A DNA stretch of 64,000 nucleotides, taken from the NCBI GenBank assembly GCA_026414725.1, contig JAOAIL010000001.1, positions 136,249 through 200,248 on the forward strand, in the 5' to 3' direction. A program made the translations under genes and the position numbers. The notes under the pieces were generated by a model. It was not told the origin of the DNA, made no database searches, and saw only the letters and a list, made by a program, of their open reading frames with translations. Positions 24,362 to 27,085 of this stretch are shown piece after piece (positions within the stretch are counted from its first letter, which is position 1; each line of letters begins with the position of its first letter). Source of the DNA: a bacterium (lineage in GTDB: Bacteria > Ratteibacteria > UBA8468 > B48-G9 > JAFGKM01).

Positions 24362-25624
24362 ATGAAGGTATTAATCTATGAAGATGAAAAATGGAGAGAC
24401 CTTTTACCGATTACATTTATTAAAGCAGTATTTGAAATCAGATGTGGGTACGACACTCTCATTGATAAAATTATGTCTGTTTTGACTGAAAGTGAAAAAG
24501 GATTCTGGGTCAGGGATTATATTAAGGACCTTATAGGGAGAAAATATAATCTACCTGTTAATAACACATCATTCCTACAGGACGATATACTCTTTGTAAA
24601 TGGAAGATGGTTACCATCCTCAGAGGATAAGATAGTTATTTCAGAAGAAAAGATTGTAAAAAGTAAAGACAATATAATCTATGGTCTGCTCAAAAAAGAA
24701 ACAATCCATAAGTTCTGGAATGGTGATATTACGAAATTTTTCCATGACATTAAAAGCAGCGTAAAGGTAGAGGAAAAACAGACACGATGTATTAATTATC
24801 CATGGGACCTGATTATATATAACCCTGGCATGTTGAAAGAGGATTTCAAAAGATATGGAAAACAGGGGATAGAAGGTATATTCCATAAGGAAGCAGTTAT
24901 AGTAGGAGATGAAAAAGCAGTTTATATTGCAGAAGGAGCGAAAATACATCCTTTTGTTGTTCTTGATACTACACACGGTCCTATCTATATAGATAAAGGT
25001 GCAGAGATATTTCCTTCCGCAAGGATAGAAGGTCCCTGTTACATAGGAAAAGAAACACAGATTATGCCCGGTGCAAATATAAGAGAAGGTAATAGTTTTG
25101 GAGAGGTATGCAGGATAGGTGGTGAGGTGGAAGAATCCATATTCTATTCATATTCCAATAAGTACCATGATGGGTTTATAGGACACAGTTATATAGGAGA
25201 ATTTGTTAATCTCGGTGCACTGACAACCAATAGTGATTTAAAAAATGACTACAGTAATGTCTGTGTTTACCTTAATGGAAAGCCATTTGATACATGTAGT
25301 TTGAAAGTTGGTTCTTTTATTGGGGACCACACAAAGACAAGCATTGGCACACTTTTTAATACAGGGACCATCGCAGGTTTGATGTGTAATATCACAGCAG
25401 GCGGGATACTACCAAAGTATTTCCCTTCTTTTACATGGTATGTCAATAACAAGTTTATGAAGGGCTATGGTCTGGATATGATGATATGTACTGCAAGAAC
25501 AGTAATGCAAAGAAGAAAAAGAGAGTGGTTGAAAGAAGAAGAAGATACCATAAGGACTGTATATGAGATTACAGAAGAAGAGAGAAAAGAAGCCATAAAG
25601 AAAAGCAGAAAAACAAGTAGATAA
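24362..25624 (+). CDS. left-handed beta-helix (hexapeptide-repeat) transferase with degenerate nucleotidyltransferase-like N-domain
   Basis: C-terminal 230 aa are built of [LIV]GxxxxIxxxxxIG hexapeptide turns. The N-terminal roughly 190 aa contain LLPIT, reminiscent of sugar-nucleotidyltransferases, but lack the Gly-rich NTP loop. Confidence 0.5.
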   Translation: MKVLIYEDEKWRDLLPITFIKAVFEIRCGYDTLIDKIMSVLTESEKGFWVRDYIKDLIGRKYNLPVNNTSFLQDDILFVNGRWLPSSEDKIVISEEKIVKSKDNIIYGLLKKETIHKFWNGDITKFFHDIKSSVKVEEKQTRCINYPWDLIIYNPGMLKEDFKRYGKQGIEGIFHKEAVIVGDEKAVYIAEGAKIHPFVVLDTTHGPIYIDKGAEIFPSARIEGPCYIGKETQIMPGANIREGNSFGEVCRIGGEVEESIFYSYSNKYHDGFIGHSYIGEFVNLGALTTNSDLKNDYSNVCVYLNGKPFDTCSLKVGSFIGDHTKTSIGTLFNTGTIAGLMCNITAGGILPKYFPSFTWYVNNKFMKGYGLDMMICTARTVMQRRKREWLKEEEDTIRTVYEITEEERKEAIKKSRKTSR

Positions 25625-25634
25625 GGAGGTTAAG

Positions 25635-25889
25635 ATGGACTATAAAGAGATAGAAGCGAGAGTAAAAAAGGTTATCTCTGAAGTTTTAGGGGTAGATGAG
25701 GAAGGAATAACTCCTGAAAGCAGATTTGTTGAGGATTTAGGAGCTGAAAGTGTTCAAAGTTTGGAACTGGTGGCTGCCTTTGAGGATGAGTTTGACATAG
25801 AGATGGAAGAAGATGCAGCACTCCAAGTTAAGACCGTGGGAAAGGCAGTGGAATTTATACAGAGACACCTAAATGGGAAGGGAAGATGA
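25635..25889 (+). CDS. acyl carrier protein-like (phosphopantetheine attachment site)
   Basis: 84 aa, acidic. DLGAESVQSLELVAAFEDEFDIE matches the ACP helix-2 [8 protein letters not shown]..EL motif with the conserved Ser. AGGAGG RBS. Confidence 0.7.
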   Translation: MDYKEIEARVKKVISEVLGVDEEGITPESRFVEDLGAESVQSLELVAAFEDEFDIEMEEDAALQVKTVGKAVEFIQRHLNGKGR

Positions 25890-27085
25890 AAATACTTGTA
25901 ATAAACTGTGGCAGTTCCTCAGTAAAATTTAAGGTCTTTGAGATGCCGGAAGAGGAACTGGTTGCAGAAGGCAATGTTGAAAAAATAGGAGAAGAGATTG
26001 CATTGTTCTCATATACAAAGGGGCAACAACAATTATTTTACAGAAAATCAGTAGATGTAAAAACGCACACTGCTGCTCTCTCTCTTATTGCAAGTACATT
26101 GGGAGATAAAGAAATTGGAGTTATAAATGATGTAAAAGAAATTAAAGGAGTAGGACACCGAGTTGTCCATGGAGGTGAGGGCTTTGACAGAAGCGTTCTC
26201 ATTACAGATGAGGTTATAAAAAAGATAGAAGAATACCAGACCCTTGCACCACTCCATAATCCACATAACCTATCAGGTATCAGGGCCTCTATGAAATTTT
26301 TCCCAGACAGTTTACAGGTTGCTGCTTTTGATACTGCATTCCACACCACCATCCCCCCTGTTGCATATCTTTATGCTATACCCTATGAGTTTTATGAGAA
26401 ATACAGGATAAGAAGATATGGATTTCATGGGACTTCTCATAGATATGTAGCAAGACGTGCCGCTGAACTTCTGGGAAAAGGGAAGTATGATGTGAATGTT
26501 ATTACATGCCATCTGGGTAATGGTTGCAGTATTACAGCAGTGAGAAATGGACATTCTGTGGATACGAGTATGGGATTGACACCGCTTGAAGGACTTGTAA
26601 TGGGAACACGGTCAGGAGATATTGACCCCGGTGTAATATTCCATCTTATTGACTCACTGGGTTTGAGTGCAAAAGAGGTCAATGATCTTCTGAACAAGAA
26701 AAGCGGACTTTTAGGTCTTTCAGGTATCTCCAATGATTTCAGGAACCTTCTTTCTAAAATGGAAGAAGATAGGGTTTTACTTGCTATAGATATTTACAGT
26801 TATAGAATCAAAAAATATATCGGAATGTATATGGCTGTGTTAGGCAGAGTGGACGCCATTGTTTTTACTGGGGGTGCAGGAGAGAATGTTCCTCATATAA
26901 GAGAGAGGGCACTTTCAGGACTTGAAAACTTTGGGATTATCCTTGACAGTGAGAGGAATTATAAAGCATTCGCAAAGGAAGAGAAAATCAGTGCAGAAAA
27001 TTCTAAGGTAAAGGTCTTTGTTATTCCCACCAATGAAGAACTCCGTATTGCCTTTGACACATACCAGCTGGTAAGTCAGAAGTAA
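25886..27085 (+). CDS. ackA: acetate kinase
   Basis: MKILVINCGSSSVKF, VGHRVVHGG, HLGNG.S, VFTGG.GEN signatures. ATGA overlap with the ACP gene. Confidence 0.9.
   Translation: MKILVINCGSSSVKFKVFEMPEEELVAEGNVEKIGEEIALFSYTKGQQQLFYRKSVDVKTHTAALSLIASTLGDKEIGVINDVKEIKGVGHRVVHGGEGFDRSVLITDEVIKKIEEYQTLAPLHNPHNLSGIRASMKFFPDSLQVAAFDTAFHTTIPPVAYLYAIPYEFYEKYRIRRYGFHGTSHRYVARRAAELLGKGKYDVNVITCHLGNGCSITAVRNGHSVDTSMGLTPLEGLVMGTRSGDIDPGVIFHLIDSLGLSAKEVNDLLNKKSGLLGLSGISNDFRNLLSKMEEDRVLLAIDIYSYRIKKYIGMYMAVLGRVDAIVFTGGAGENVPHIRERALSGLENFGIILDSERNYKAFAKEEKISAENSKVKVFVIPTNEELRIAFDTYQLVSQK

Follow-up and report, generated by a model that had tools for sequence, protein, structure and literature searches.

What does an acyltransferase with a left-handed β-helix (LbH, hexapeptide-repeat) domain do with an acyl carrier protein (ACP) gene at its side, and what does acetate kinase contribute to such a pair? 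The question is raised by a three-gene cluster in a stretch of 64,000 nucleotides from contig JAOAIL010000001.1 of a Ratteibacteria genome (the whole stretch is called the window below), in which the gene for a 420-residue GlmU-like LbH protein is followed by an ACP gene and by ackA. We found that the LbH and ACP genes keep together across many lineages and are fused in one of them, and that the linked ACP is distinct from the housekeeping carrier. Our preferred reading, held with middling confidence, is that the LbH protein is an acetyl-ACP-dependent N-acetyltransferase of glucosamine phosphate, which works with a private ACP fed from the acetate/acetyl-phosphate node.

The LbH protein and its dedicated carrier

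The open reading frames (ORFs) of the cluster were confirmed as first annotated, with the ACP gene, which has an intact DLGAES attachment motif, lying between the LbH gene and ackA, and with acpS past mgtA (Table 1). Ten base pairs separate the stop codon of the LbH gene from the start codon of the ACP gene, which is preceded by the ribosome-binding site AAGGAGG, and the ACP and ackA ORFs overlap as ATGA, through which ackA is translationally coupled to the ACP gene. The LbH gene itself is preceded by an AT-rich spacer of 130 bp, in which a ribosome-binding site is found. The promoter-like site listed for this region is a match to the consensus, and the number of such matches does not exceed the expectation from shuffled sequence. 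No Rfam element, riboswitches included, was found upstream of the cluster. The AcpS protein scored 44.6 bits with PF01648 (cut-off 25) and 57.4 bits with TIGR00556 (cut-off 45.35), and narrowly missed the AcpS equivalog model TIGR00516 (58.8 bits, cut-off 59.8); the real start of its gene is probably internal to the listed ORF. Searches of the 64-kb window with E. coli queries revealed no homologue of PlsX, FabH, FabD, FabG, FabF or FabZ, and none of LpxA, LpxB, LpxD, GlmS or GlmU.

The initial annotation had compared the LbH protein with acyltransferases of the LpxA/LpxD type, but profile searches place it with GlmU and ST0452. It scored 378.4 bits with TIGR03991 (alt_bact_glmU; cut-off 225.3), residues 1–401 aligning with profile positions 1–394, and it contains the Pfam domains NTP_transf_4 (PF13562; 81.5 bits, cut-off 27) and Hexapep. 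The cut-offs of LpxD (TIGR01853; 21.6 versus 242.5 bits), LpxA (TIGR01852; 19.7 versus 231 bits) and canonical bacterial GlmU (TIGR01173; 24.7 versus 366.85 bits) were missed, as was that of archaeal GlmU (TIGR03992; 108.7 versus 292.1 bits), for which the match was confined to the LbH half, and neither PF00483 nor PF12804 matched the protein. TIGR03991 is an already named 'hypothetical equivalog' family, a call that was presumably based on genomes without a canonical GlmU.

The family profile matches the LbH domain of Sulfolobus tokodaii ST0452 (PDB 2GGO and 5Z09) with an E-value of 1e-23. The histidine H269 is invariant in the family and aligns with the catalytic His308 of ST0452; we take it to be the counterpart of H363 in E. 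coli GlmU. The acetyltransferase half of the TIGR03991 name is matched by this LbH domain with its general-base histidine, and many of the invariant polar residues of the domain correspond to the sugar-phosphate-binding region of ST0452. The nucleotidyltransferase half of the name finds no such match: the G-x-G-T/S-R loop was present in none of 90 members, in which residues 4–15 contain on average 0.16 glycines and have instead an invariant E7 and a near-invariant D8, so that the loss of the Gly-rich loop noticed in the window protein holds for the family. The loop region reads (I/V)(F/Y)-E-D-x-K-W-x-N, and in a by-eye alignment the position of the catalytic lysine is occupied by valine in 74 of the 90 members. 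Judged by these alignments, the N-terminal domain has a nucleotidyltransferase fold that is predicted to be catalytically dead. It probably binds some ligand, because it has retained invariant polar residues of its own (E7, R51 and W148, with D8, N67, N80, R82, E96 and N154 invariant or nearly so).

The LbH domain is followed by a three-helix extension of about 50 residues (371–418), which has the invariant arginines R384 and R385 and a Lys/Arg-rich tail. Sequence conservation in the family peaks in two motifs, NSDLKNDY and GDHTKT, which fall into residues 286–302 and 313–330, the sole regions of the monomer model with a predicted local distance difference test (pLDDT) score below 50. Low-confidence modelling would be expected if the two motifs formed inter-subunit active-site loops of a trimer, and the model suggests that their ordering probably needs the trimer or the substrate.

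The small protein encoded downstream passes the ACP thresholds, a check that the initial annotation had asked for: it scored 53.6 bits with PF00550 (PP-binding; cut-off 20.8) and 83.5 bits with TIGR00517 (cut-off 70.45), and it failed the stricter AcpP equivalog models NF002149 (85.8 versus 106 bits) and NF002151 (84.3 versus 92 bits). The serine of DLGAES is invariant in about 70 ACPs linked to LbH genes. In all lineages these ACPs carry the signature DLGAES(V/I)QS(L/I)ELVAAFE.EF.IEM(D/E)EDAAL.V.TVG, which is not found in canonical AcpP and is kept even where the ACP gene has been relocated within the cluster; by their sequences, the linked ACPs form a distinct subfamily. In the relative L018, whose LbH protein is 62% identical to that of the window, two ACP genes are present on one 23-kb contig. 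The linked ACP shares 74% of its residues with the window ACP and 47% with E. coli AcpP, and its TIGR00517 score is 82.5 bits. The other ACP scored 112.5 bits, shows 73% identity to E. coli AcpP and is accepted by all AcpP equivalog models; its gene directly adjoins fabF (51% identity of the product to E. coli FabF). In a reciprocal test, all three of three ACP homologues (68–82% identity, independent contigs) were encoded between an LbH gene and ackA. The possibility that the window ACP is the housekeeping carrier was rejected on the strength of the separate acpP–fabF pair in the relative L018 and of the signature of the linked ACPs, and no fab genes lie in the window.

Among the best 150 representatives of the family we found a fusion of the two proteins, which together with the subfamily and the second acpP of L018 bears out the earlier view of the ACP as private. 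One of these representatives (P0262/P0390; 520 residues, 40% identity) combines NTP_transf_4 and Hexapep with a C-terminal PP-binding domain, which scored 38.5 bits over residues 447–512 and has the motif ELGFESID. The cluster of this protein has two members of 520 residues on three contigs, independent ENA and NCBI assemblies among them. By the Rosetta-stone argument, the fusion indicates a direct cooperation of the LbH enzyme with ACP.

Table 1. Coordinates in the window of the cluster genes and of the features related to them
Feature	Position	Strand	Remarks
nagB, glucosamine-6-phosphate deaminase	2093–2932	+	TIGR00502, 328.7 bits (cut-off 236.9)
pta, phosphate acetyltransferase	2935–3906	+	TIGR00651, 313.6 bits (cut-off 311.2); NF007233, 341.7 bits (cut-off 310)
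Promoter-like site TTGATT-17-TATAAT	24274–24302	+	Upstream of the LbH gene; consensus match only
GlmU-like LbH acyltransferase gene	24362–25624	+	420 aa; TIGR03991
Dedicated ACP gene	25635–25889	+	84 aa; attachment Ser in DLGAES
ackA, acetate kinase	25886–27085	+	399 aa; TIGR00016, 516.1 bits (cut-off 293.4)
mgtA	27203–29779		Between ackA and acpS
acpS, holo-ACP synthase	29866–30390	-	Convergent with the cluster

Conservation of the gene association

Out of 8,000 scored candidates, 7,221 were homologues of the 420-residue protein at E ≤ 1e-5, and the family comprised 1,494 clusters at 50% identity and E ≤ 1e-30. The closest public relatives are metagenome-assembled genomes (MAGs) labelled Ratteibacteria or Omnitrophota. 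One genome per species was scanned with the family alignment, which gave 80 loci with 44–81% identity, and the flanking sequence was examined over ±10 kb in each relative's genome. About 12 phylum-level labels are represented among the 80 loci: Ratteibacteria, Omnitrophota, Latescibacterota, Poribacteria, Planctomycetota, Elusimicrobia, Desantisbacteria, TA06, Gemmatimonadota, Cytophagia, Zhuqueibacterota and Abditibacteriales, with a few MAGs labelled archaeal. Neighbours were counted by tblastn with the window proteins, and a full-flank set was formed by the 48 loci with at least 3 kb on each side.

An ACP gene follows the LbH gene on the same strand within 400 bp in 56 of the 75 loci with sufficient downstream sequence (median gap 38 bp), and 41 of the 48 full-flank loci have ACP no more than 6 kb away from the LbH gene. 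In the same set, NagB or NagB-II is encoded within 6 kb in 39 loci, Pta and/or AckA near the LbH gene in 34, and AcpS within 6 kb in 13. ADP-forming acetyl-CoA synthetase (ACD), identified by NF045493 and by its CoA_binding, Succ_CoA_lig and ATP-grasp_5 domains, occurs in six, never together with Pta or AckA. An unbiased all-against-all clustering of the neighbouring ORFs gave pta, ACP, nagB and ackA as the top four families. The adjacency of the LbH and ACP genes is far beyond chance, and the trio of LbH gene, ACP gene and ackA singled out in the window is kept together across phyla.

The arrangement of the genes varies. With G for the LbH gene, the observed orders include nagB-pta-G-ACP-ackA-acpS, nagB-pta-ackA-G-ACP, pta-G-ACP, pta-nagB-G-ACP, nagB-G-ACP-HMGL-like, ACP-nagB-ACD-G and G-ACD-ACP. 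Two non-orthologous displacements were recognized: Pta plus AckA versus ACD, and NagB (TIGR00502) versus a NagB-II/GlmS-C-like protein of the SIS type, which replaces NagB in L055 and L068. Occasional neighbours are an archaeal-type GlmM (TIGR03990, 469 bits) and NagC-like ROK regulators, and GlmU-like genes with real nucleotidyltransferase domains, scoring below the TIGR01173 cut-off, adjoin the LbH gene in L038 and L064. A single locus out of the 80 has NagA, a rarity that speaks against a catabolic nag operon of the classical type; in that locus (L077, 11310–12596; TIGR00221, 322 bits), which has no ACP, the NagA gene stands right after the LbH gene, in the usual place of ACP.

Several individual loci had further peculiarities. 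In seven Planctomycetota-labelled loci (L065, L067, L073, L074, L076, L082 and L083) and in one labelled Poribacteria (L053), all eight without pta and ackA, an HMGL-like gene directly follows ACP. Its product resembles isopropylmalate and homocitrate synthases (about 120 bits, far under the cut-offs), and may either function like a Re-citrate synthase or consume acetyl-ACP. L067 has two ACP genes of the linked subfamily in one locus (11514–11747 and 15428–15670). In two unrelated lineages, nagB is separated from pta or from the LbH gene by the gene for a second, large LbH-containing protein with DUF4954 and DUF6819 (about 640–730 residues; L040, 739–2652; L066, 7803–9983). In L057 (6765–9152), nagB and the LbH gene have as a neighbour the gene for a 795-residue protein in which a galactokinase-like (GHMP) kinase is fused to a GlmU-type nucleotidyltransferase domain. 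This protein could act in salvage as an anomeric sugar kinase/uridylyltransferase and supply the nucleotidyltransferase activity that the LbH protein lacks. The order pta-ackA-LbH-ACP-acpS was seen in L041, L055, L058, L059 and L068, which are labelled Thermoproteales, Thermofilaceae or Thaumarchaeota and whose ACPs look more AcpP-like (IPDEDAEKNQTVG).

Proposed function of the private carrier

In E. coli, GlmU, an LbH-fold N-acetyltransferase acting on glucosamine 1-phosphate, binds ACP and prefers acetyl-ACP, to which its binding is ten-fold tighter than to acetyl-CoA (Km 20 µM versus 400 µM) (PMC8666670), and GlmU of both E. coli and P. aeruginosa co-purifies with AcpP (PMC6158461). Whaley (2021) asked how widespread the use of acetyl-ACP is and what its source could be outside Proteobacteria, a question that follows from MadA and MadB being proteobacterial (PMC8666670). 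The full module analysed here (NagB, Pta, GlmU-like LbH acyltransferase, dedicated ACP, AckA and AcpS) can be read as follows. AcpS would convert the ACP to its holo form, the ACP would carry an acetyl thioester, and the LbH domain, with H269 as the general base, would move the acetyl group to glucosamine 1-phosphate or glucosamine 6-phosphate, with the basic C-terminal helices probably docking the acidic ACP in an LpxD-like manner. NagB, working in the anabolic direction, would make glucosamine phosphate from fructose-6-phosphate and ammonia, and GlmM, where present, would shift the 6-phosphate to the 1-phosphate. The acetyl unit would be exchanged with the acetate/acetyl-phosphate/acetyl-CoA node by AckA and Pta, or by ACD in other lineages. 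The initial annotation had spoken of a modification pathway of unspecified kind; the coupling of ACP, LbH protein and acetate kinase proposed there is conserved, but the modification itself can be narrowed down, and in the context of NagB and GlmM it is most likely the N-acetylation of hexosamine.

In the most direct version of this scheme, Pta would load holo-ACP from acetyl-phosphate, a step proposed by analogy with PlsX; we detected no sequence peculiarities supporting the loading of ACP by Pta. The complete relay, in which acetyl-phosphate from AckA would pass through Pta or ACD to the private holo-ACP and on to the N-acetylation of glucosamine phosphate by the LbH protein, bypassing CoA, seems doubtful to us.

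Comparison with known systems shows shared and differing elements. Unlike the window protein, E. coli GlmU works with the housekeeping AcpP; its uridylyltransferase domain is active, and it receives acetyl-ACP from the malonyl-ACP decarboxylases MadA and MadB; here the ACP is private and sometimes fused, the nucleotidyltransferase loop is dead, a helical C-terminal extension is present and the linkage is to AckA and Pta or to ACD, not to Mad. ST0452 differs in having a working G-x-G-x-R loop, in using acetyl-CoA without an ACP partner and in lacking the three-helix C-terminal extension. LpxD and LpxA are LbH trimers that also take their acyl group from ACP, and the helical ACP-recognition domain at the C-terminus of LpxD (PDB 4IHF family) appears comparable in position to helices 371–418. 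The logic proposed for the module is that of FakA/FakB–PlsX, in which a carboxylate kinase makes an acyl-phosphate and a transacylase of the Pta/PlsX superfamily passes the acyl group to ACP; the difference is that the window gene encodes a bona fide Pta (PF01515, TIGR00651), for which ACP is a putative acceptor. AcpXL and NodF are, like the ACP described here, second ACP paralogues reserved for one acylation pathway and encoded beside their transferase, but they carry long or unusual fatty acyl chains made by linked ketosynthases, whereas no chain-building genes are linked here.

Several observations weigh against acetyl-ACP-dependent N-acetylation fed from the acetate node. By their scores, Pta, AckA and ACD are all CoA-type enzymes of the ordinary kind; they are probably the organism's sole fermentative copies, and they may do no more than share an operon with the LbH gene. 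An adjacent ACP is missing in seven of the 48 full-flank loci. In some loci an HMGL-like (isopropylmalate-synthase-like) gene or citrate synthase stands in place of the acetate genes, and these consumers of acetyl thioesters fit a loose 'acetyl-CoA node' equally well as a loading pathway. No pta, ackA or nagB lies within 8 kb of the fused LbH-ACP gene, which identifies LbH plus ACP as the core unit. The presence of a second acpP in the window's own genome would follow from its relative L018, and our literature search found no publication on TIGR03991 or on PF13562 (NTP_transf_4).

With these points in mind, one may ask whether the ACP carries the acetyl group at all. The LbH protein could be an ordinary acetyl-CoA-dependent glucosamine-phosphate acetyltransferase, with the ACP as its regulator or structural partner, through which hexosamine synthesis would sense lipid or acetyl status, and with Pta, AckA and ACD sharing the acetyl-CoA pool. 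ACP is known as a promiscuous binding partner (PMC6158461), several users of acetyl-CoA (citrate synthase, the HMGL-like enzyme) are found among the neighbours, and Pta and ACD look like standard CoA enzymes. We nevertheless consider this explanation unlikely, for the LbH-ACP fusion and the recurrent linkage to AcpS better fit a swinging-arm carrier, and acetyl-ACP is the actual substrate of E. coli GlmU (PMC8666670).

A carrier of longer chains is improbable. In this case the ACP would carry a 3-hydroxyacyl or another fatty acyl group, and the LbH protein would make an N-acyl amino sugar for a glycolipid or the envelope, as LpxD does. The only acyl-handling neighbours are specific for acetate (AckA, Pta and ACD), and the module has no linked gene for chain building, such as one for FabD, a ketosynthase or an acyl-ACP synthetase. 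The LbH domain is closest to glucosamine-1-phosphate acetyltransferases, and the LpxA and LpxD models gave about 20 bits against cut-offs above 230. These results have to be set against the use of long acyl-ACPs by the known ACP-dependent LbH enzymes LpxA and LpxD, the LpxD-like architecture of the C-terminal helical extension, and the envelope-related neighbourhood (PlsC, IspH) of the Ratteibacteria module.

It is quite improbable that the LbH protein acts on the ACP itself, as an acetyl-CoA:ACP S-acetyltransferase whose acetyl-ACP would prime FabF/FabB or feed a canonical GlmU, in the manner of MadA/MadB. Polyketide synthases have GNAT-ACP loading didomains, to which the fused acyltransferase-ACP bears a resemblance, and the GlmU-like genes of L038 and L064 could be customers for such a product; an acetyl-ACP source outside Proteobacteria has been noted as unknown (PMC8666670). 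Many invariant polar residues of the LbH domain, however, coincide with the sugar-phosphate-binding region of ST0452, FabF/FabB would be served no better by a separate ACP paralogue than by AcpP, and the linkage to NagB and GlmM points to a sugar acceptor. That there is no functional coupling, a housekeeping acpP having been placed by chance and kept by phylogenetic inertia, is hardly credible: the ACP passes the generic AcpP model TIGR00517 and many loci come from related candidate phyla, but L018 holds a second, canonical acpP–fabF pair, the linked ACPs have a distinct conserved signature, the adjacency survives at least five gene orders and two non-orthologous displacements, an LbH-ACP fusion protein exists and the 64-kb window has no fab genes.

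An energy-conserving deacetylation was considered and rejected on thermodynamic grounds. It would run from N-acetylglucosamine phosphate and ACP-SH to glucosamine phosphate and acetyl-ACP, then to acetyl-phosphate and ATP, and would have the appeal of giving NagB, Pta/AckA, ACD and the citrate-synthase-like neighbours a common place in the consumption of acetyl-ACP. By an estimate from textbook values, hydrolysis of the amide yields about 0 to -10 kJ/mol and that of a thioester about -32 to -36 kJ/mol; the transfer would therefore be uphill by about 25–35 kJ/mol, which makes coupling to ATP synthesis impossible.

The split module, its surroundings and its significance

In the close relatives (L001, L007–L029 and L090–L095) the genes follow the order PlsC-LytB-RpsA-NagB-Pta-LbH-ACP-AckA-AcpS, with AcpS on the minus strand. 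In L001 and L007–L029 pta is directly upstream of the LbH gene, and ackA is immediately 3′ of the ACP gene throughout the Ratteibacteria-like clade. The window has nagB and pta behind lytB-rpsA, as in the relatives, its NagB is 73% identical to that of L001, which adjoins pta-LbH, and L090 runs on into the V-ATPase/HypF genes of the window. The window pta, however, precedes the LbH gene by about 20.5 kb and ackA by about 23 kb. The window contains a split copy of the nagB-pta-LbH-ACP-ackA-acpS module, in which LbH-ACP ancestrally stood between pta and ackA; the remark that ackA does not form a pair with pta is right for this genome but not for its relatives, in which the two flank LbH-ACP.

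The roughly 20 kb between pta and the LbH gene (3907–24361), which are adjacent in all close relatives, contain unrelated genes, and the block looks like an insertion or rearrangement. It encodes a flavoprotein, a class III aminotransferase, an M20 peptidase, RNase T, a TPR protein, ExbB/ExbD/TonB, an M55 peptidase, an esterase, an SIS protein, araD/araB-like genes, YggS, a sugar-phosphate isomerase-like TIM barrel, three tRNAs, and deoxyhypusine-synthase-like and LplA-like genes. Between the TPR protein and exbB-exbD-tonB there is an ORF for 469 residues without a Pfam match (10285–11694). The deoxyhypusine/homospermidine synthase-like gene (21873–22964; PF01916, 144.7 bits) missed all NCBIfam equivalog cut-offs; its listed start overlaps tRNA-Ser (21858–21945), so its true start is further downstream. 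The gene directly upstream of the LbH gene (23464–24231) encodes a protein of 255 residues with an LplA/LipB-type catalytic domain, which fell under all lipoate ligase equivalog cut-offs. Enzymes of the LipB type use octanoyl-ACP. This gene and mgtA were rejected as members of the module, as they were near the LbH gene in none of 86 loci (L001–L086); both are insertions specific to the window.

Beyond the cluster, a V-type ATPase A subunit is encoded at 32878–34644, and a hydrogen metabolism block on the minus strand (34613–53347) has HypF and other Hyp maturation genes, among them an ORF for a fused HypB (CobW-type GTPase)–HycI protease (38720–39877). The block includes a run of Mrp-antiporter-like, NuoH-like and NiFe large-subunit-like genes, which is typical of group-4 membrane-bound hydrogenases. 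The window comes from an anaerobic fermenter, since it holds this group-4 [NiFe] hydrogenase/Mrp cluster, the Hyp genes and a V-type ATPase subunit.

The results bear on the annotation of two protein families. Half of the database name of TIGR03991 ('UDP-GlcNAc diphosphorylase/...') is probably mistaken, given the degenerate nucleotidyltransferase site, and in these phyla the annotation 'acyl carrier protein' lumps together two ACPs that are distinct. If the loci L041, L055, L058, L059 and L068 are truly archaeal, the presence of ACP and AcpS in a host without fatty acid synthase would mean that the module is self-contained. UDP-N-acetylglucosamine (UDP-GlcNAc) is the entry point to peptidoglycan and lipopolysaccharide. 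Should the CoA-bypassing relay exist, the flux of acetyl-phosphate/acetate fermentation would directly meter the synthesis of cell-envelope precursors, and the relay would be the missing source of acetyl-ACP outside Proteobacteria (PMC8666670). Present in Planctomycetota, Omnitrophota, Ratteibacteria, Latescibacterota, relatives of Bacteroidota and others, the module offers a natural test system for the question of acetyl-ACP and GlmU.

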